A stretch of DNA of 61,816 nt, filler included, from Pseudomonadota bacterium (GCA_043825735.1; 6 parts of 6 records of this genome joined end to end with filler, not necessarily neighbours in it); one strand, 5' to 3'; shown: positions 7,199-59,062, numbered from the whole stretch's first letter. A program made the numbers and translations. Notes: a model not told the origin generated them from the sequence alone.

Positions 7199-7298
7199 NN
7201 NNNNNNNNNNNNNNNNNNNNNNNNNNNNNNNNNNNNNNNNNNTTAATTAATTAANNNNNNNNNNNNNNNNNNNNNNNNNNNNNNNNNNNNNNNNNNNN
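7199..7298. other. Artificial contig linker (also 9778-9877, 24910-25009, 55893-55992, 58963-59062)
   Basis: N runs around TTAATTAATTAA, which gives stops in all six frames; identical 100-nt layout five times. Confidence 0.98.
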
Positions 7299-9766: not shown

Positions 9767-9878
9767 AAATGCCTAACNNNNNNNNNNNNNNNNNNNNNNN
9801 NNNNNNNNNNNNNNNNNNNNNTTAATTAATTAANNNNNNNNNNNNNNNNNNNNNNNNNNNNNNNNNNNNNNNNNNNNG

Positions 9879-24829: not shown

Positions 24830-25009
24830 GTTCTGTCACTTAGCTACAATTCTTGCATACAATTTTGACATAAATTTATCTGTTGATGCGTTATCAGAGA
24901 GCAAATAGTNNNNNNNNNNNNNNNNNNNNNNNNNNNNNNNNNNNNNNNNNNNNTTAATTAATTAANNNNNNNNNNNNNNNNNNNNNNNNNNNNNNNNNNN
25001 NNNNNNNNN

Positions 25010-30319: not shown

Positions 30320-30442
30320 GATAAAACCGTAAAAAGTGATTTTGAACCACAGAGACCGCAGAGAAAATACCGAATAATTAGCAAGTTATCTCTGCGTTTT
30401 CTGTGTCCTCTGTGTTGAATTCTGACTTTTTACGAAGGCATC
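30320..30442. mobile_element. MITE copy 3
   Basis: TIRs GATAaaacCGTAAAAAGT / ACTTTTTACGaaggCATC; flanks AAGTTT/AAGCTT; internal cacagag/ctctgtg hairpin. Confidence 0.7.
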
Positions 30443-30513
30443 AAGCTTGATTACTAATCGGTTTGCTGCCTGCGCCGTTCGACTTCGCTGTTGTCCATCC
30501 ATGGGAGGAATCT

Positions 30514-30630
30514 TGCTCCCTCGTCCATGATGGGAGAGGGACGGGGTGAGGGGGACATCCCACAGATAACAAAAGACAATCTTATACCGGCCCACCCCCT
30601 CCCCTGGCCCCTCCCACAAGGGGAGGGGTA
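30514..30630. repeat. REP-like palindrome GGGAGAGGG...GGTGAGGGG / CCCCTCCCC...CCCTCCC
   Basis: Two inverted arms directly after the HD gene. Confidence 0.65.
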
Positions 30631-30631
30631 T

Positions 30632-31423
30632 TCATGGATGGACAATAGCTGAGAGACGGCGCTGAATGACAGGCTTTAGTGATTGGACTTGCGCATCTTG
30701 GGGAAGAAAAGAGAGCAGCTTACCAAGATATCCTCTATCGATCGCAATTTTGGCACTTACCGGATAACTGAATCCAGTCAACCAACCGCTTACCAGCAGT
30801 TTAAAATCATTTACCCACACTAAATCTTCATATCTGACAGGCGCTCCAGAATGGATATTTTCCAAGATATTTTTCGAATACTCTTCAGGGTCGGACTTTA
30901 AGCCAAAAAGGAGCGCGTTTCTATCTTCATTGTTTGAAAAGTATTCAATTATTGTACTCATGATATCTATCTTGTCGGCATCTCGAATTATCCTAAGGGC
31001 GAGATCTACCTGAACTGGCAGGTTATCCTGCAGGTGGTGACGATTGTGTAAAAGCACGGCAGCCAGTATTGTTCTGCGGTGGCTGGGTTCAATCGCAGCA
31101 AGGATTCCTTCTTTTTTTAATATTTTCACACCAACGGCGGCGTGATTCACCGTTTTGAGATCATTGTAGGACTGGAAACGGGCATATTGATCAAACCGGC
31201 CGACATCATGAAACAGTGCGGCAATTCTGCAAATACCACTCGTGGGGGAAGGCAGGTCCAACCAGTCGATAATTTCTTCAGAAACACGCAGCACTCTCAT
31301 AGAGTGATCGATTTTCATCTGAATGTTTCGCTTATCTTCGGCAGTCCCCTGTAAATACCCTTTTGAAAAGGAATGGAACCAGTCGATATAGTATGAGATG
31401 TCAGGCGGTATTTCAAATTCCAT
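30632..31423 (-). CDS. HD-domain protein
   Basis: KIDHSMRV, ALFHDVGRFDQY, NHA, IRDADKIDI; lower GC. Confidence 0.85.
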   Translation of the reverse strand: MEFEIPPDISYYIDWFHSFSKGYLQGTAEDKRNIQMKIDHSMRVLRVSEEIIDWLDLPSPTSGICRIAALFHDVGRFDQYARFQSYNDLKTVNHAAVGVKILKKEGILAAIEPSHRRTILAAVLLHNRHHLQDNLPVQVDLALRIIRDADKIDIMSTIIEYFSNNEDRNALLFGLKSDPEEYSKNILENIHSGAPVRYEDLVWVNDFKLLVSGWLTGFSYPVSAKIAIDRGYLGKLLSFLPQDAQVQSLKPVIQRRLSAIVHP

Positions 31424-32165
31424 ATCATTTCGCCTATGGAGCGTTGGGAGCGTTTAGATCGTTGGGAGCGTTTAGATCGTTAGGAGCGTTGGGAGCGTTT
31501 AGATCGTTAGGAGCGTTGGGAGCGTTGGGAGTGTGGGCGCCGAGGGTGCGTTCTGGCCGCTACGCGGCGTTCCGGGTTCCGGGTTGGCGCCGGAGGCGCG
31601 TTCCAGGTTCCGGGTTCGGCGCCGGAGGCGCATTCTGGCCGCTACGCGGCGTTCCGGGTTCAAAATCGCTAACGGCAAAGACATTGAACCGCGAAGGACG
31701 CCAAGGACGCTAAATCAAAATTCTTTGGTTTTCGCTGTTTCTGTCGTCTGGCAGTTCGTCTTGTCCGCCAAAGCCTTAGCGGAGGTGGAAGCCTTTGCAG
31801 AAGTGGAAGGCCGCCACACCATCGCCTTCAACACCATAAAAACAATTTTCACCACCGCAGAGAAACAGAGTGAACGGAGAACTGCAGGTTTTGATTTCGG
31901 GAGATACCGAAATCAAAACGGTTTCGATCGCCTCCGGCGAGGTGGTGCATCATGCTAACAAAACCGTTAATACTTGGCTGGTTTTACCATGCTATGACCA
32001 CTGTCGAACTGCCCGAAGGGCTGGAACCCTTTTGGGATCACGGCATCTCCCGGGATCCCAAAAACTCTGTTTCCTCTGTTCCTCTGTGGTGAAATCACCC
32101 TCACAGTTGCGTTCGGCCGTCTTGTCCGCCGAAGCCTTGGCGAAGGTGGATCTGCGCCAAAGACT

Positions 32166-33164
32166 TTAGGGATTTTTGCCGTGGTATTTTTGATGCCATC
32201 GCCAGGCTGTTTCGATGATGCCTTCGAGATCGGGGAACCGGGGCGCCCACCCGAGTTTTTCGCGGATCTTCATAGCGTCGCCGACAAGCACCGCCGGGTC
32301 CCCGGATCTGCGGTTGGCGATTTCATAGGGCACCTTGCGACCGGTGACTTTCTCGGCTACCGCGATCAGCTGCCGGATCGAAAAACCGTTGCCGTTGCCC
32401 AGGTTGTAAGAAGCGCTCTGGGCGTCGCCCTGCAATGCCTTCAAGGCCAGCAGATGGGCCTGGGCCAGATCGCTGATGTGAATGTAGTCCCTGATGCACG
32501 TGCCATCGGGGGTGTCGTAGTCGTCGCCGTAAACGGACAGTTTTTCCCGGCGCCCGTCTATCGCATCGAGAACGAGCGGGATCAGGTGGGTTTCCGGGTC
32601 GTGAACTTCACCCACCGCCCCTTCCGGATCGGCGCCGGCGGCATTGAAATACCTGAGATTGACATGACGCAAACCGTGAGCGATCTCGGCATCGGCGAGC
32701 ATCCGCTCCACGGCCATCTTTGAAAACCCGTACGGATTGACAGGCTTCTGGGGGTGGGACTCAACGAGGGGCAGCGCCATCGGCTCGCCATAAATGGCGC
32801 AGGTGCTCGAAAAAATCATTTTGGAAATGCCGGCTTCGACCATGGCCTCAATAAGGGTCAGGCTCCCGACGGTATTGTTTCGGTAATACATCTCCGGATG
32901 CTCGACCGATTCGCCCACATAGGCAAAGGCGGCAAAGTGCATGACCGCTTGCGGCCGATATTGTTTCATCACCGCGACAAGCCGCTCACCATCCAGAATG
33001 TCGCCCTTTTCCAGCGGCCCCCATTTCACCGCCCATGCGTGCCCCCGGCTCAGGTTGTCGTAGACGATGGGCGTGTAGCCGCCGGCTGCCAGTGCTTTGC
33101 AGGCATGTGAACCGATGTAGCCGGCGCCGCCGGTGACCAGGATGGTGTTGTTTTTTGAAGTCAT
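32166..33164 (-). CDS. galE: UDP-glucose 4-epimerase
   Basis: GGAGYIGSH, HFAAFAYVGES, YGFSK, LRYFNAAGA, PETHLIP, DGTCIRDYIH. Confidence 0.93.
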   Translation of the reverse strand: MTSKNNTILVTGGAGYIGSHACKALAAGGYTPIVYDNLSRGHAWAVKWGPLEKGDILDGERLVAVMKQYRPQAVMHFAAFAYVGESVEHPEMYYRNNTVGSLTLIEAMVEAGISKMIFSSTCAIYGEPMALPLVESHPQKPVNPYGFSKMAVERMLADAEIAHGLRHVNLRYFNAAGADPEGAVGEVHDPETHLIPLVLDAIDGRREKLSVYGDDYDTPDGTCIRDYIHISDLAQAHLLALKALQGDAQSASYNLGNGNGFSIRQLIAVAEKVTGRKVPYEIANRRSGDPAVLVGDAMKIREKLGWAPRFPDLEGIIETAWRWHQKYHGKNP

Positions 33165-33425
33165 GGGTATGAGCCTTTGGCACTGCGTTAGTTGGCCGCC
33201 TGCGGCGGGGGAAAACCTTTTTGGCACGGATTACACGGATTGCACGGATTTGGGCACTGCGTTAATTGGCCGCCTGCGGCGGGGGAAAAGCTTTTTTGGC
33301 ACGGATAGGGTTTGCGCACCTGCAGCGCTTTAAACCGTGTAATCCGTGGAATCCGTGCCAAGGAGCTTTTGTGCTGTTATTTTTTTATTTATAATAGCAG
33401 TGACAAAAGAATTTTTACCCCGTGC

Positions 33426-33803
33426 CTAAGGCTTTTTGGTTTTGGTGAAAACCTTGCGTTTGATCTGAACGCTTTGGGCAAAGTTGATCAGGAGGCCGAT
33501 TTCAATGCCTGTTGCTTTGAGATAGTTGTTCAATTGCGCCTCGTGGGCCGGATGCAACTCTTTTATGGATTTCAGCTCCAGGATTACTTTCTCCTCGACG
33601 AGAATATCGGCAATGTAGTCTCCGACTATTTTTTCATCGTAAAGGACTTTGATCGGCACTTCCATTTGAGCGTTAAGGCCTGCCTTTTCAAGTTCGATCA
33701 TGAGTGATTTCTGATAGACCGCTTCAAGGAAGCCAAATCCAAGGGTATTGTGGACTTTGTAGGCACAGTCGATGATCTTGGCGGTGAGGTCACTGTGTTT
33801 CAT
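33426..33803 (-). CDS. GxxExxY protein
   Basis: VHNTLGFGFLEAVY, YIADILVE..VILELKS, HEAQLNNYLK, GLLINF. Confidence 0.93.
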   Translation of the reverse strand: MKHSDLTAKIIDCAYKVHNTLGFGFLEAVYQKSLMIELEKAGLNAQMEVPIKVLYDEKIVGDYIADILVEEKVILELKSIKELHPAHEAQLNNYLKATGIEIGLLINFAQSVQIKRKVFTKTKKP

Positions 33804-34140
33804 GGATATTGTTGGCGCTGCGTTAATGGGCCGCCTGCGGCGGGGGAAAGCTTTTTTGGCACGGATTACACGGATTGCGCCTATACGGCTTAAAAAGCGA
33901 CGCGGATTTGGGCACTGCGTTAGTTGGCCGCCTGCGGCGGGGAAAACCTTTTTGGCACGGATTACACGGATTACGCGGTTAAGAAATTACGCAGCGCCTT
34001 CGGCGCTTTAATCCGCGTAATCCGTGTAATCCGTGTAATCCGTGCCAATGAGCTTTTATGTTGTTATTTTCTTCATTAAAAATAGCAGTGCCAAAAAGCA
34101 TTTTCCCCCGTGCCTAAGGCTTTTGAAATTTAGGACCGGA

Positions 34141-35364
34141 TTATTTTGACAGATATTCTTCGTAGGTTGTCCGGATGCCGTCTTCGAGTGCGATTGACGC
34201 CTTCCAGCCGGCGGCGTTGATTCTGGACACATCGAGGCGCTTTCGGTACATGCCGTCGGGTTTGCTGCTGTCGAAGACCATATCGCCAGTAAAGCCAATC
34301 GTTGTTTTTACCAGCGCGGCCAGTTCGGCGATGGTCGCGTCAGCGCCGCTACCGACATTCACAAATGAGACGCCGGTGTCGGTGGTGGCCCGTTGATAAG
34401 CAGTTTCTTCCATTTGCATGACGTGGATGCAGCCGCCGGCCATGTCGTCGACGTGGAGAAATTCGCGGTAAGGCGCCCCCGAGCCCCACAGGATCACGGC
34501 GGGTGGGACTTCAGAGGGCAGAGGACAGAGGACAGAGGACGGAGAAACGCATTCCGGGTTCAAGGTTCCGGGTTCAAGGTTGGCAGCCGAAGGCTGCGTA
34601 AAACCCTCTTTGGGTTCAATCTGTGTAATTTTTTGAAGCCGTGTAGGCGTAATCTGTGGATAAACCGTTTTTTGGCCGTTGCGGATGGCAATTGCGTTTA
34701 GTGAATGGCGGATGTCTTCCGGGATGGGGCCGTAGGTTTCCTCGTCATATAGAATGCCTTTTCCGTCGCCAATTTCGGCCAACTTGGCCAGGTGGAATTT
34801 ACGGATCAGGGCCGGCAGGACATGGGAGTTTTGAAGGTTGTAATTGTCATTGGGGCCATAGAGATTTGTGGGCATCACCGACCGGTAGTCAGAGCCGTAT
34901 TGCCGGTTGAGGCTTTCGCAAAGTTTGATGCCGGCTATTTTGGCAATCGCGTAGGGCTCGTTGGTCGGCTCCAAGGCACCGGTGAGCAGGTATTCTTCCT
35001 TCAAAGGTTGGGCTGCCGCAGTCGGGTAGATGCATGAGCTGCCCAAAAACAGCAGATTCTTTACCCCTGCCTTGAACGCCCCCCAGATCACGTTGTTTTG
35101 AACGGTCAGATTCTCGTAGATGAAATCGGCCCGGTAGGTGTTGTTCGCATAAACTCCGCCCACGCGGGCTGCGGCCATGAACACGCCGTCGATCCTGTTG
35201 CTTTCAAAAAATGCGAAGACGGCCCGCTGGTCCAGCAGGTCGAGCTGCTGCCGGGTGCGGGTGATGATGTTGGTGTAGCCGTCCTTTTGGAGACGGCGGA
35301 GGATGGCCGAGCCGACCATGCCCTTATGGCCGGCGACGAAAATGGAATCATTTTTGTTCAACAT
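34141..35364 (-). CDS. fcl: GDP-L-fucose synthase with a repeat-derived insertion
   Basis: GHKGMVGSA, AAARVGG, GSSCIYP, YAIAKIAG, MPTNLYGPNDN, WGSGAPYREFLHVDD. Confidence 0.93.
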   Translation of the reverse strand: MLNKNDSIFVAGHKGMVGSAILRRLQKDGYTNIITRTRQQLDLLDQRAVFAFFESNRIDGVFMAAARVGGVYANNTYRADFIYENLTVQNNVIWGAFKAGVKNLLFLGSSCIYPTAAAQPLKEEYLLTGALEPTNEPYAIAKIAGIKLCESLNRQYGSDYRSVMPTNLYGPNDNYNLQNSHVLPALIRKFHLAKLAEIGDGKGILYDEETYGPIPEDIRHSLNAIAIRNGQKTVYPQITPTRLQKITQIEPKEGFTQPSAANLEPGTLNPECVSPSSVLCPLPSEVPPAVILWGSGAPYREFLHVDDMAGGCIHVMQMEETAYQRATTDTGVSFVNVGSGADATIAELAALVKTTIGFTGDMVFDSSKPDGMYRKRLDVSRINAAGWKASIALEDGIRTTYEEYLSK

Positions 35365-35418
35365 TTCAAAACCAATATTTCACCACAGAGTAACAGAGAT
35401 AATAGAGTATAATTTGAT

Positions 35419-35829
35419 TCAGGGAGATGCCTGAATCAAATCATCATTCGGTAGCATTAGGCGAGTGATACCATCTTTTAACAAGACCACGTTAAAGTTG
35501 ATTAATAAACCAACCGGAGCTTTTAATATCTTCATGTATGTCATGGCCTGGGCTTCATGGATTGTCTCTATTCTTTTGCATGACTTGAGCTCTACAACAA
35601 CTACGTCGTCAACGAACAGGTCAACACGGTACTTACATTCTGTCGGCTTCCCCTTATAAACGATGGGAATTTCCTTTTGCCTTGAGAAGGCAAGTCCACG
35701 ATTACTGAACTCTAAACACAGGCATTCTTCGTAGATGTTCTCGAGAAGTCCTGGACCGAGCTCTTTGTGGACCTCTATAGCAGCGCCTATAATTGCCCCC
35801 GTGAGAACGTTGATCGAGTCATTTACCAT
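35419..35829 (-). CDS. GxxExxY protein
   Basis: AIEVHKELGPGLLENIY, YRVDLFV..VVVELKS, HEAQAMTYMK, GLLINFNV. Confidence 0.93.
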   Translation of the reverse strand: MVNDSINVLTGAIIGAAIEVHKELGPGLLENIYEECLCLEFSNRGLAFSRQKEIPIVYKGKPTECKYRVDLFVDDVVVVELKSCKRIETIHEAQAMTYMKILKAPVGLLINFNVVLLKDGITRLMLPNDDLIQASP

Positions 35830-35970
35830 AAATAATTTTTACCACAGAGGTACAGAGAAAACAGAGTTTCTGGAATCCCGGAAGGCGACGCAAACTGTTT
35901 TGATTTCGGTATCTCCCGAAATCAAAACCAGTCGTTCTCCGTTCACTCTGTGTCTCTGTGGTGAACTGAT

Positions 35971-37149
35971 CTATTCATAGTAGTTTTTGATCTTGAAGCC
36001 TTGTTGTTGCAGGGTGTCATCTCTTAGGGCGTCTTGCAGGTCGGAGGTGACCATGTCTTTAACCAGTTCTTCGAAGGTGATTTTGGGCGCCCAGCCTAAT
36101 TTCTGTTTGGCTTTTGATGGGTCGCCCAATAACGTCTCCACCTCGGTGGGGCGGAAGTAGGCGGGGTCGACTCTCACGATCGTCGACCCTGGGTTCACGG
36201 TGCACGGTTCACGGGGCACGGCTGAATCTCCCGGAGGCCCTTGCGGAAAATCTACGGAGATGTCGGCGACTGATGAGAGGATGCCGACTTCGTCGATGCC
36301 TTTTCCCTGCCACTCGATGCTCATGCCCAGATTGGCAGCGGCTTTGTCGACAAATTCTTTGACACTGTGCTGCTCGCCGGTGGCGATGACGTAGTCGTCA
36401 GGGGCATCTCCCTGAAGCATGAGCCACATCATGCGAACGTAGTCCTTGGCGTGGCCCCAGTCGCGCAGGGCGTCCAGGTTGCCCAGGTAAAGGCAGTCCT
36501 GCAGCCCCAGGCGGATGCGGGCCAGGGCGCGGGTGATTTTTCGCGTGACAAAGGTCTCGCCGCGAACCGGAGACTCATGGTTGAAAAGAATGCCGTTACA
36601 GGCAAAAAAATTGTAGGCCTCCCGGTAGTTCACCGTGATCCAGTAAGCGTAGAGTTTGGCCACCGCATAGGGAGAGCGCGGATAAAACGGCGTCGTCTCG
36701 GATTGGGGCACTTCCACCACCTTGCCGTAGAGCTCACTGGTGGATGCCTGATAATAGCGGGTCTTACCCCCCAAGCCCAGGATTCGAATAGCTTCGAGCA
36801 GCCGCAGCGCGCCCATGGCATCGGTATCGGCCGTGTATTCGGGCGTCTCGAAAGACACCTGCACATGGCTCTGGGCCGCCAGATTGTAGATCTCGTCGGG
36901 CTGGGTTTCCTGGATGATGCGGATCAGGTTGGTGGCGTCGGTGAGATCGCCGTAGTGCATTTTGAACCGCACATCCTTTTCGTGCGGATCCCGGTAGAGG
37001 TGATCCACCCGGTCGGTATTGAACAGCGATGCGCGGCGCTTGATGCCGTGAACGCTGTAGCCTTTTTTCAAAAGAAACTCGGCAAGGTAAGCGCCGTCCT
37101 GGCCGGTGATGCCGGTGATTAAGGCGACTTTTGAGTTAGAATCAGTCAT
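35971..37149 (-). CDS. gmd: GDP-mannose 4,6-dehydratase
   Basis: [47 protein letters not shown]. Confidence 0.96.
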
Positions 37150-37243
37150 CGGAGTTTTCCTTGTGGAATTGAGCCATGGTTGGTGGTTGGCATCGATTCA
37201 GGGATTTAGGAATTTAGGAATTTAGGAATTTAGGAATTTAACG

Positions 37244-37615
37244 CTATTTTGACTGGAGATCTCGGAGATATTTGCGGAAACCTTTAATCTGTTTGCGGCA
37301 ATCCGCTGCCAAATCGTATACGCGCCTGAATTGGTTTTCATCAATGTAGCCACAATCCGTTGCGCGGTAGAGCTGGGACTGTACTTCACTGCATGAACGC
37401 TGAGAGTATCCTAAGAACTTCACGAACTCCTTTGTGGAGCTATCATCAAACCCCTCGGCGATATTGTCCATCACCGATCCCGAAACCCGCCAAATCTGGT
37501 CCTTTAAACTGTAATCTCTGTTAAAAGGCACAGCATTAATAATTTTCCAAACTTCGCGACACAACTCTCGCGCCACCTGCCAACAAGGCAATTCTTCGAA
37601 TGTCTTATAGCCCAT
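37244..37615 (-). CDS. Four-helix-bundle protein (23S rRNA IVS protein family)
   Basis: FEELPCWQ.A, LKDQI.R...SVMDNIAEGF, EFVKFLGYS..S..EVQSQLY.A.D.GYI. Confidence 0.92.
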   Translation of the reverse strand: MGYKTFEELPCWQVARELCREVWKIINAVPFNRDYSLKDQIWRVSGSVMDNIAEGFDDSSTKEFVKFLGYSQRSCSEVQSQLYRATDCGYIDENQFRRVYDLAADCRKQIKGFRKYLRDLQSK

Positions 37616-37743
37616 TTTTAGTTCCTGCAGTTTTTAAGCCGTTTAGGCGCAATCCCTCAATTCCTGTCGCTTTTTAAGCCGTATAGGCGCAATCCCTGAA
37701 TTCCTGAATCCCTCAATTCCTGAATCCCTCAATCAGCTTTTTC

Positions 37744-38010
37744 TTAAGCCATACCATCTCGAAGTTTTCTAAGGGATCTAATCTTCTTATACTCCAACAT
37801 CAGATCGATCCACTCGCGGAAGAGCGGGGCCAGGCGCTCGATGGAGGCGCCGGTGCGGCGGTTGGCGATACGGTTCAGGGCAAACTGGCATTCTTCGTTG
37901 TCCGGATCGTTTTCCAGGAGGTGGCGGCAGATCTCTTCGGCCTTGTCGAAATTGCCCTGATCCTCCTGCACTTTGGCCATGGTGGCGGTGAAGAACGTTT
38001 TGTCGGTCAT
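37744..38010 (-). CDS. Small TPR-like protein
   Basis: FFTATMAKV..DQGNFDKAEEICRHLLENDP; GAGGTG SD. Confidence 0.7.
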   Translation of the reverse strand: MTDKTFFTATMAKVQEDQGNFDKAEEICRHLLENDPDNEECQFALNRIANRRTGASIERLAPLFREWIDLMLEYKKIRSLRKLRDGMA

Positions 38011-38407
38011 GGGGTCACCTCGAATTGCGCCTATACGGCTTCAAAGATTGGCACTGCGTTAATTGGCCGCCGGTGGCGGGAAAACCTTTTTGGCACGGAT
38101 TTCACGGATTACACGGATTAAAAAAAGAGAATTTTCGCGGCCTGCGGCCGAAGGGCAACAGCAAAGAGATTTAACCGCGGATGACGCAGATTAAAACCAA
38201 GAGGTTTGTTCGAATCGTGACCCGGGGCGCTTTTTTCCCGGCGACCCGATTCGGACAAAACTTAGCGTCCTTCGCGCACTTCGCGGTTCAATGTCTTGCA
38301 GTTCGCCGTCATCCGGCTTTTCTCCGACCTCCGACCTCTGACCTCGGACCTCGGACCTCGGACCTCGGACTTCTGACCTCTGACATCTGGCATCTGACTT
38401 CAACCCT

Positions 38408-39424
38408 CTATTCGCTATAATACCCCCGATACCAGGCCACAAACTGGCGAATGCCTTCTTCCAACTGTGTATGGGGACAAAAGCCGGTGGCGGCGATGAG
38501 GTCGTCGATGTCGGCATGGGTCGCTTTGACATCTCCGGGCTGCATATCCATGAATACTTTTTGGGCTTCAATGCCGAGCGCCCTCTCGAGCGTTTCGATG
38601 AAGTCGATCAACGCCACCGGCTGGTTGTTGCCGATATTGTAGATGCGATACGGCGCATAGGAAGTGCCGGGGTCAGGCGCATCACCGGACCAGTCCGGGT
38701 TCGGCGCGGGTACCGTGTCGATGACTTTTACGATGCCTTCGACGATATCATCGATGTAGGTGAAATCGCGCTGCATGCGGCCATGATTGAACACCTTGAT
38801 GGGTCGTCCCGCGAGAATGTCCCGGGTAAAAGAAAAATAGGCCATGTCCGGCCGACCCCAGGGGCCGTAGACCGTAAAAAACCTCAGACCGGTGCAGGGC
38901 AGTCCGAAGAGCTGGCTGTAAGCATGGGCCATGAGCTCATTTGACTTTTTGGTGGCTGCGTAAAGCGACACCGGATGATCCACGTTGTGGTGGACTGAAA
39001 ACGGCGTCTTCGTATTGGCGCCGTAAACCGAACTCGATGAAGCAAACACCAGATGCCGTAGCGATTTGTGCTGGCGGGCCCCTTCCAGCAGATTGGCAAA
39101 CCCGACGATGTTGGCGTCGATGTAAGCCGCGGGATTTTCCAGCGAATAGCGCACGCCGGCCTGGGCCGCCAGGTTGACGACGGCTGTGAAGTCATGCGCC
39201 TTGAAAAGCGCCGCCGTAGCGGTCCTGTCGGCCAGATCCATTTTTATGAAGGTAAAGCGCTCGCTCGCTTCCAGCTGCTTCAGACGGTCGCGCTTGAGAT
39301 GCGGGTCGTAGTAGTCGTTGAGGTTGTCGATGCCCACGACCGCACGGCCGGCATCCAGCAGGCGCCGGCTGAGGTGATACCCGATGAACCCGGCAGCGCC
39401 GGTGATTAAAACCTTGTTATCCAC
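38408..39424 (-). CDS. UDP-glucuronate 4-epimerase-like NAD-dependent epimerase
   Basis: GAAGFIG, NLNDYYD, LAAQAGVRYS, YAATKK, RFFTVYGPWGRPDMA; GTG start inferred. Confidence 0.92.
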   Translation of the reverse strand: MDNKVLITGAAGFIGYHLSRRLLDAGRAVVGIDNLNDYYDPHLKRDRLKQLEASERFTFIKMDLADRTATAALFKAHDFTAVVNLAAQAGVRYSLENPAAYIDANIVGFANLLEGARQHKSLRHLVFASSSSVYGANTKTPFSVHHNVDHPVSLYAATKKSNELMAHAYSQLFGLPCTGLRFFTVYGPWGRPDMAYFSFTRDILAGRPIKVFNHGRMQRDFTYIDDIVEGIVKVIDTVPAPNPDWSGDAPDPGTSYAPYRIYNIGNNQPVALIDFIETLERALGIEAQKVFMDMQPGDVKATHADIDDLIAATGFCPHTQLEEGIRQFVAWYRGYYSE

Positions 39425-55788: not shown

Positions 55789-55892
55789 GCGTTTAGAGCG
55801 TTTAGAGCGTTTAGAGCGTTTAGAGCGTTTAGAGCGTTTAGAGCGTTTAGAGCGTTTAGAGCGTTTAGAGCGTTTAGAGCGTTTAGAGCGTT
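55789..55892. repeat. (TTTAGAGCG)x11 perfect array at the contig end
   Basis: Read directly; the contig ends inside the array. Confidence 0.95.
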
Positions 55893-55992
55893 NNNNNNNN
55901 NNNNNNNNNNNNNNNNNNNNNNNNNNNNNNNNNNNNTTAATTAATTAANNNNNNNNNNNNNNNNNNNNNNNNNNNNNNNNNNNNNNNNNNNN

Positions 55993-58962: not shown

Positions 58963-59062
58963 NNNNNNNNNNNNNNNNNNNNNNNNNNNNNNNNNNNNNN
59001 NNNNNNTTAATTAATTAANNNNNNNNNNNNNNNNNNNNNNNNNNNNNNNNNNNNNNNNNNNN

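Follow-up and report, generated by a model that had tools for sequence, protein, structure and literature searches.

In a 61,816-nt window of the assembly GCA_043825735.1 (a Pseudomonadota bacterium), the gene run galE-fcl-gmd is interrupted within 33170-37740 by three small genes which, in agreement with the initial annotation of this DNA, profile searches assign to the GxxExxY family (PF13366; two genes) and to a four-helix-bundle family (PF05635; one gene). We find that the three genes are probably the cargo of mobile cassettes that are bounded by hairpins and resemble the intervening sequences (IVS) of 23S rRNA. The window is the whole stretch of DNA analysed; the part in question, 25010-55892, is one contig (C151, 30.9 kb) of an assembly of 6.8 Mb in 160 contigs with 57.5% G+C. 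On the minus strand the gene order is TPR (tetratricopeptide repeat), four-helix, gmd, GxxExxY #2, fcl, GxxExxY #1, galE, and the genes and the elements in the spacers between them are as follows.

32166 to 33163, minus strand: galE (TIGR01179, 7e-133); the listed open reading frame (ORF) reaches a GTG at 33227
33164 to 33425: spacer element downstream of GxxExxY #1 in the gene sense, with the complete hairpin I1 within 33212-33370
33426 to 33803, minus strand: GxxExxY #1, 125 aa (PF13366, 5e-42; TIGR04256)
33804 to 34140: spacer element upstream of GxxExxY #1, with CACGGATTA arms and the complete hairpin I4
34141 to 35364, minus strand: fcl (GDP-L-fucose synthase), 407 aa, profile match in two stretches
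35379 to 35407: arm copy past the stop codon of GxxExxY #2, CACCACAGAG type, reading ...CTCTGTGGTGAA in the gene sense
35419 to 35829, minus strand: GxxExxY #2, 136 aa (PF13366, 1.6e-43; TIGR04256)
35838 to 35965: complete hairpin between gmd and GxxExxY #2, arms 35838-35866 and 35937-35965
35971 to 37149, minus strand: gmd (GDP-mannose 4,6-dehydratase), 392 aa
37196 to 37240: downstream arm of the four-helix unit, (ATTTAGGA) x5.6
37244 to 37615, minus strand: four-helix-bundle gene, 123 aa (PF05635, 5e-31; TIGR02436)
37631 to 37734: upstream arm of the four-helix unit, made of AATCCCTSAATTCCTG units together with the module TTTTAAGCCGTATAGGCGCAAT in two copies
37744 to 38010, minus strand: TPR gene, 88 aa

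Read in the sense of the gene, the usual layout of such a unit begins with the stop codon of the upstream operon gene and an arm of two to six tandem units, continues with 17-75 nt that include the ribosome-binding site, the small ORF and a further 4-20 nt, and ends with the reverse-complement arm and the start of the next operon gene; the median distances are 33-37 nt from arm end to start codon and 16-27 nt from stop codon to arm start. The four-helix unit in the window conforms to this five-part layout: its ATTTAGGA array at 37196-37240 faces AATCCCTSAATTCCTG x2.7 at 37691-37733, and its 44-nt arms are separated from the start codon by 75 nt and from the stop codon by 5 nt. Around GxxExxY #1 the CACGGATTA/TAATCCGTG arrays that had been annotated were present (33225-33250, 33335-33357, 33956-33978 and 34009-34044), but instead of one arm on each side they form two near-duplicate whole spacers (direct-repeat score 67), each a complete hairpin with shared outer modules. 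The arms of I1, made of CACGGATTA units, lie at 33212-33260 and 33322-33370 (49 nt each, 80% complementary) and those of I4 at 33943-33978 and 34022-34057, with a module GCGCCTATACGGCTT at about 33877-33891 in the upstream spacer. GxxExxY #2 has CACCACAGAG-type arms at all three of the positions listed, giving the order arm-loop-arm'-gene-arm', a variant that recurs in both copies of such a unit in a relative, G024.

All ten genes of the two families in this genome (seven PF13366 and three solid PF05635 genes by profile search) lie inside operons in the same orientation as both neighbours, compared with a baseline of 56% co-directional spacers among crude gene calls, and the host operons include galE-fcl-gmd, gatC-gatA, an mlaE-mlaF-like permease/ATPase pair and a wzm-wzt-like ABC-2 permease/ATPase pair, among others. 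In other genomes, 62 of 70 neighbours of GxxExxY genes and 58 of 62 neighbours of four-helix genes are likewise on the same strand.

Short tandem arrays are abundant throughout this genome, with 3813 merged arrays found by Tandem Repeats Finder (period 9 being the commonest) and some 1900 distinct units of period 6-12, so that flanking repeats alone prove little. Strict pairing of arrays with the same unit was too insensitive, giving 197 pairs from the 2335 arrays of period 7-10, and we therefore aligned, for each crude gene (greedy longest ORFs, of which 6012 were scorable), the upstream flank of 250 nt with the reverse complement of the downstream one and took the best local alignment as the score. 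The 99th percentile of this score was about 15, a value reached by 72 of the crude genes. Nine of the ten GxxExxY and four-helix genes reached it (scores 15-30.5), against 63 of the 6002 others, bearing out the view taken from the first inspection that each small gene is bracketed by short-unit repeats of its own; the sole exception, the GxxExxY gene of gatC-gatA, has a complete hairpin on just one side. In an unbiased scan for same-unit arrays 250-1000 bp apart, three GxxExxY genes and one four-helix gene came up, and the array pairs enclosed just two other real genes, one glyoxalase-like and one with a PIN domain.

The same analysis was extended to 30 relatives from 29 families of the same order (31 genomes including this one) and to members of both families collected from five genomes of other phyla. 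At E values of 1e-10 or better, PF05635 was present in 26 and PF13366 in 17 of the 31 genomes, and in this order sample the two were often found within a few kb of each other, adjoining sugar-nucleotide genes. Over all genomes examined, a flank score of 15 was reached by 44 of the 66 GxxExxY and 27 of the 42 four-helix genes, compared with 11 of 121 neighbour genes in the same loci; seven of these 11 proved by their coordinates to be target genes missed by the filter, which leaves 4 of 114. The hairpin-nested layout is thus confirmed as general across phyla. Planctomycetota, Bacteroidota, Rhodothermota and Acidobacteriota, among others, have relatives of GxxExxY #1 that are 45-60% identical to it, and eight of 72,556 plasmid records carry GxxExxY relatives; no relative of the four-helix protein was found in the phage collection searched. 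In G013 (C23:23230-24231; L044/L059) two nearly identical GxxExxY genes stand in tandem about 650 bp apart, and in G018 (C99) two GxxExxY copies with equal scores are 870 bp apart. Both pairs look like local duplications of whole units.

The composition of the arms goes with the protein family across phyla. The arms of GxxExxY genes consist of CRCRRA units (AACCACGGAGGACACGGAG, ACCACGAAGATCACGAAGG and CACGGATTACACGGATT, for instance), while the arms of four-helix genes, for example GAGGGATTCAGGAATT, GAAGGCTGAAGGCT, TTTGGAGTTTGGAG and AGGAATTAGGAATT, are poor in C. At least two CRCRRA motifs were found in 24 of 44 GxxExxY arms compared with one of 27 four-helix arms (Fisher p 6.6e-6), and the C fractions were 0.23 and 0.11, respectively (Mann-Whitney p 1.6e-6), although these p values are indicative only, related genomes not being independent samples. 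The nearest relative of GxxExxY #1, 68% identical and from another family of the order, likewise has CACGGATT arms, and units of CACGGATT or CACAGAT type also accompany members of its clade in Rhodothermota, Bacteroidota and the Fusobacteria plasmid CP102406.1.

Alignment with relatives, the check that the initial annotation had suggested, yielded both filled and empty sites, at the TPR-gmd, gmd-fcl and gatC-gatA junctions. The TPR-gmd spacer measures about 590 nt with the four-helix unit here and 67 nt in the congener G001, whose gmd is 84% identical and in which the last ~45 nt upstream of gmd align with the window. Roughly 530 nt, comprising the arms and the four-helix gene, are absent from G001, and in their place stands GAGGATTCTGAATTT, a mini-palindrome in which one unit faces its own complement. 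The gmd-fcl junction is occupied differently from genome to genome:

this genome: GxxExxY #2
G001: an N-terminal fragment of a four-helix gene between short direct repeats
G025 (another family): an intact four-helix gene with GGTTCAMGG arms
G019: 20 nt
G028: about 100 nt

Between gatC and gatA there is a GxxExxY gene here but none in G001, G019 (8 nt) or G028 (46 nt), while a CGCAGAG hairpin just upstream of gatA is common to this genome and G001; the small genes therefore turn over, whereas some hairpins are inherited. At the position of GxxExxY #1, after fcl, G001 carries a nucleotidyltransferase gene (PF01909) followed by a putative HEPN-like N-terminal fragment (L001 4468-4950), which reads as a third kind of small gene pair using this spacer, the HEPN assignment being made by eye. 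A site downstream of gatA in G001 was considered as a clean empty site and dropped, because its downstream neighbour differs and only half of it is comparable. The contigs of four sequencing runs over 32000-39000 break at repeats; no joined empty allele was found among them, and the joints listed lie in repeats. Of the RNA runs, none was listed as containing this sequence.

Both GxxExxY proteins of the window scored 143-149 bits against curated cut-offs of 35 and 22 (TIGR04256 and PF13366 PDDEXK_3). Residues G24, E27, Y30, D66, E76 and K78 (numbering of #1) are invariant in 20 aligned GxxExxY proteins. A PDB search by sequence gave no significant match, but an AlphaFold model (mean predicted local distance difference test score 94) matched, in Foldseek, Cas4 SSO0001 best (E 1.9e-4, template modelling score 0.61) and, next to it, lambda-exonuclease-like enzymes and Hjc, a Holliday-junction resolvase. 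The modelled protein thus has a PD-(D/E)XK nuclease fold with an intact D...ExK triad. PMC3424549 lists PDDEXK_3 with function unknown and 'multiple transfers'. The four-helix protein scored 107.5 bits against a cut-off of 33.8 and 105 against 24 (TIGR02436 and PF05635) and matched PDB 2GSC, an uncharacterised helical protein, by sequence (E 7.9e-10); PF05635 is called uncharacterised and Avd-like in PMC11270868 and PMC10053308.

Evidence bearing on movement came from a gene-less family of repeats. In G020, two 496-bp copies of a four-helix unit, the ORF of which has an in-frame stop, lie on different contigs with 98% identity, which extends beyond the arms to GGATCATCTCCCGATTAGTTG... on one side and ...CTTCTCCAACTAAATTGGAGAAGAACC on the other. 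In our genome the same termini delimit a family of gene-less elements with terminal inverted repeats of 22 nt, present in 11 full copies of 251-322 bp (examples of the family are G000 C93:75585-75900, C32:25783-26120 and C16:14137-14427); a core of roughly 200 nt is common to at least 20 copies, at 75-86% identity. These elements have CAAGGGTT-type arms and a module GCGCCTATACGGCTTAACAGCGAC, which has 78 matches at up to two mismatches, always within a purine-rich arm; clear AT-rich duplications of 7-8 bp are found in three copies. The gene-less elements, including their conserved non-coding core of ~200 nt, matched no Rfam family. They behave like miniature inverted-repeat transposable elements (MITEs), and their sequence supports a tie between gene-bearing and gene-less units of the four-helix type. 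This agrees in part with the earlier proposal that orphan arms are derivatives of the gene-bearing units, since one gene-less family has its termini, its arms and an internal module in common with four-helix units; most orphan hairpins, however, including the abundant CRCRRA ones, are not tied to these genes, and the one upstream of gatA, found at the same locus in the congener, is vertically inherited. The statement that most other spacers of the contig are filled by copies of these arms without a gene was overstated: 16 of its 23 spacers of at least 40 nt hold some array, but CRCRGATT, CRCRGAG and AGGRATT units occur in just six, two and three of the 23, gene-flanking spacers included.

The 22-nt terminal inverted repeats of the gene-less family, and the 7-8-bp duplications of some copies, suggest a transposase that works in trans and for which the small gene would be cargo. 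Every long ORF in 33170-37740 has been assigned, and neither a transposase nor a reverse transcriptase is among them, as the initial annotation had noted; in this assembly we found neither a longer element with the termini of the gene-less family (GGATCATCTCCC... / ...GGGAGAAGACCC) nor a matching transposase. Eight matches to PF01797 (Y1 transposase) are present in the genome, including C86:120979-121944 and others on C34, C112, C50 and C136, and the Y1 gene units examined resemble REP (repetitive extragenic palindromic)-associated transposase units. Y1 transposases were considered as movers of the hairpins and rejected, the five examined sitting between unrelated inverted repeats of their own (16-39 nt, 0.9-1.05 kb apart). 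Integron cassettes, considered from the layout alone, were also dropped because the small genes have housekeeping genes on either side; no integrase search was made.

Among known systems, the closest parallel is provided by the ORF-bearing IVS of 23S rRNA in Leptospira and Coxiella. According to PMC4990558, these have the ORF in the loop of a 28-bp stem of terminal inverted repeats, are cut by RNase III in mid-stem, measure 428-444 nt, are inserted where a tetraloop was replaced, and have a sporadic distribution suggestive of horizontal transfer. The four-helix unit resembles them in having a PF05635 ORF in the loop, a long stem (arms of about 44 nt here), a similar size (about 540 nt), a small hairpin that it replaces and a sporadic distribution. 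It differs in lying in the spacer of a protein operon (TPR-gmd) rather than in a 23S rRNA helix, in having arms that are arrays of short tandem units, and in that a second, unrelated family, GxxExxY, has the same layout with its own arm type; moreover, RNase III cutting is known for the rRNA IVS, whereas pairing of the arms here is predicted from folds. With MITEs the gene-less family shares its size, its terminal inverted repeats and, in some copies, the target duplications, but the three units of the window lack outer repeats and some members of the group carry a protein gene.

Free-standing homing endonuclease genes include small PD-(D/E)XK examples such as I-Ssp6803I. The GxxExxY units are like these in that a small gene with a predicted nuclease fold interrupts a palindromic site, in having filled and empty alleles (gmd-fcl and gatC-gatA) and in their horizontal spread; they differ in having no intron or intein, in arms that are tandem arrays and in that this genome does not have near-identical copies of them at several sites. 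A resemblance of PF05635 to Avd, which is an accessory protein in diversity-generating retroelements, is reported (PMC10053308), but the locus contains no reverse transcriptase and no pair of template and variable repeats. The abundance of palindromic spacer elements and the eight PF01797 matches recall REP sequences and bacterial interspersed mosaic elements with their REP-associated transposases; the Y1 genes examined, however, do not have tandem-unit arms.

We picture the cassette as a single ORF, GxxExxY or PF05635, between inverted arms of short tandem units, lying in an operon spacer in the same direction as its neighbours, so that it would be co-transcribed with the host genes. Pairing of the arms in the transcript is predicted to give a long stem that closes off the ORF. 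RNA folds of the four-helix unit and of the gatA-side GxxExxY unit, both minimum-energy and centroid, have the arms paired around the ORF, with z scores of -3.5 and -4.9, respectively. The geometry of this stem is that of the ORF-bearing rRNA IVS, where RNase III cuts; similar processing might occur here, and the stem may let essential operons tolerate the insert. At the DNA level, cassettes would be gained, lost and exchanged between phyla together with their arm type. For the lineage of four-helix units and MITE-like elements, the best-supported route of movement appears to be a transposase acting in trans, most likely on the outer terminal repeats. For the GxxExxY type it is an attractive idea that the unit's own nuclease possibly cuts palindrome centres in the fashion of a homing endonuclease. 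Stem formation and processing in vivo, and the way of movement, we infer from the folds and by analogy with these systems.

Several observations weigh against this interpretation. The four-helix units of the window and of C15 share arms and module with the gene-less family but are without its outer termini, and no target duplication was found for the units of the window. No recent movement is visible in this genome, its paralogues being 34-54% identical. Within GxxExxY, the association between clade and repeat unit foreseen in the initial annotation is weak, in contrast to that between families: a tree of 30 proteins needs two changes, a number matched by 25 of 1000 label shuffles, and for the GPG clade against the GxGF clade the difference in arm T fraction has p 0.055. 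To these may be added the dependence among related genomes mentioned above for the arm statistics and the sheer number of repeats, with 2335 arrays of period 7-10 for ten family genes, 1460 of the arrays lying inside ORFs of the crude gene calls. The genome also holds 1374 inverted repeats with arms of at least 18 nt. Sampling of two or three 20-kb stretches per genome gave 15-30 tandem arrays per 100 kb in genomes without either family (G007, G004, G008 and G014) and 30-52 in gene-rich genomes; the corresponding figures for long inverted repeats were 5-12.5 and 7.5-15, and within this genome alone the number ranges from 0 to 7 per 20 kb, so that samples of this size and unevenness favour neither side. 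The numbers of arrays and inverted repeats in this genome as a whole would speak for hairpins that are pre-existing spacer elements of the host, similar to REP or RNA-stability elements, with immobile arms and with fragile or permissive tips in which the small genes landed. This explanation also draws on the CGCAGAG hairpin kept upstream of gatA in G001 with no gene in its loop, on the one-unit mini-palindrome at the empty TPR-gmd site and on the rRNA IVS, which too replace existing tetraloops (PMC4990558). We consider it unlikely, because arm type tracks protein family across five phyla and a plasmid, because the 98%-identical copies in G020 take in both the arms and the outer termini, and because GxxExxY #2 and both G024 copies have an extra copy of the arm beside the gene.

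The initial annotation had taken the small genes for autonomous members of mobile units, each protein catalysing the movement of its own unit, and the orphan hairpins for their non-autonomous derivatives. That the units are bounded by hairpins and come and go is borne out by the empty sites (TPR-gmd in G001, gmd-fcl in G019 and G028), and autonomy could be argued from the intact triad of GxxExxY and the nearness of its fold to Cas4, Hjc and exonucleases, from the position of the gene at the centre of a palindrome, like a homing endonuclease gene inside its own target, and from orphan arms of the same unit types (CRCRGAG in 330 and CRCRGATT in 40 of 3625 crude spacers). Of neither small protein, however, is there any sign that it moves its own unit. 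The four-helix protein lacks a catalytic fold and its solved relative is uncharacterised, the related gene-less family has terminal inverted repeats and target duplications of the kind usual in elements driven by a transposase, and near-identical paralogues are absent from this genome despite hundreds of potential targets, so that autonomy seems to us rather improbable. It is more improbable by far that the small genes are ordinary resident genes for stress, defence or RNA handling, inherited vertically, with hairpins that are regulatory or terminator-like. The proteins are indeed conserved and intact, and PF05635 genes are reported among cas genes, for example between cmr3 and cmr2, which PMC3936711 takes as functional association; yet presence varies between congeners at three junctions, the same junction holds different families in different genomes, and relatives at 45-60% identity are scattered over many phyla, in keeping with the 'multiple transfers' listed for PDDEXK_3. 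We favour the reading of the small genes as cassette cargo because it fits the co-orientation, the arms that hug the ORF, the tolerance in essential operons and the mini-palindromes at empty sites, and on the whole the interpretation first placed on this DNA is partly supported.

A wider proposal would make the GxxExxY and four-helix cassettes two lineages of one unrecognised, cross-phylum class of minimal selfish cassettes that settle at hairpin tips, whether these lie in the spacers of operons or in rRNA helices. The tandem arms would then be recognition sites for the protein that the cassette encodes, the GxxExxY nuclease would cut empty palindromes with units of its own type and repair would copy the cassette in, RNase III would release it from the transcript and so spare the operon, the rRNA IVS would be members that landed in rRNA, and many orphan hairpins would be targets or footprints. 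We regard this proposal as doubtful.

Some further features of the locus may be recorded. The window consists of several contigs joined by runs of N (7199-7298, 9778-9877, 24910-25009, 55893-55992 and 58963-59062), and the end of C151 falls inside a 9-mer array, GCGTTTAGA x11.6 at 55789-55892; as the assembly breaks at repeats of this type, the true number of repeats is probably underestimated. The likelier start of galE is the ATG at 33163, giving MTSKNNTILVTGG, rather than the GTG at 33227. Two tRNAs were the sole Rfam matches in the window. Repeat-element DNA makes up an in-frame insert of ~94 aa in fcl (roughly 34498-34779), with CACAGATT units around a module ACGCCTACACGGCTT, a GCAGCCTTCGGCTGC hairpin, AACCTTGAACCCGG x2 and CCTCTGT x4; the insert is absent from G019 and G028 and shorter in G001, and one contig of sequencing run X1 has an additional 9-nt unit behind 34617 that preserves the frame. 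In gmd, short in-frame units of GGTTCACGG type at 36192-36221 lie inside an extra segment of ~30 aa (residues about 291-320) that is missing in the gmd of most relatives, and units of this type also build the arms in G025 around the four-helix gene next after gmd. A further spacer motif, of CTCACCCTGACCCTCTCCCCCGACGGGGAGAGGG type, occurs at 30386-30650 in the window and in G001 (L071 40-160), and recurs in both genomes.

PF13366 and PF05635 are widespread small families whose function is not established and which puzzle annotators when they appear inside unrelated operons. Among the papers searched on GxxExxY/PDDEXK_3, PF05635 and intervening sequences we found no description of the architecture reported here. 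A hairpin architecture shared by both families, and specific in its arms to each, would give them a testable identity as the cargo of IVS-like elements, and may offer a route to the long-open question of the origin of the ORF-bearing rRNA IVS. It would also mean that an 'association' of such genes with cas or polysaccharide loci may be insertion, not functional partnership; insertion inside an operon would also explain the PF05635 genes between cas genes described in PMC3936711. For annotation, the tandem-unit hairpins may serve as landmarks of these genes, with the proviso that such repeat DNA also occurs in frame within genes such as fcl and gmd.

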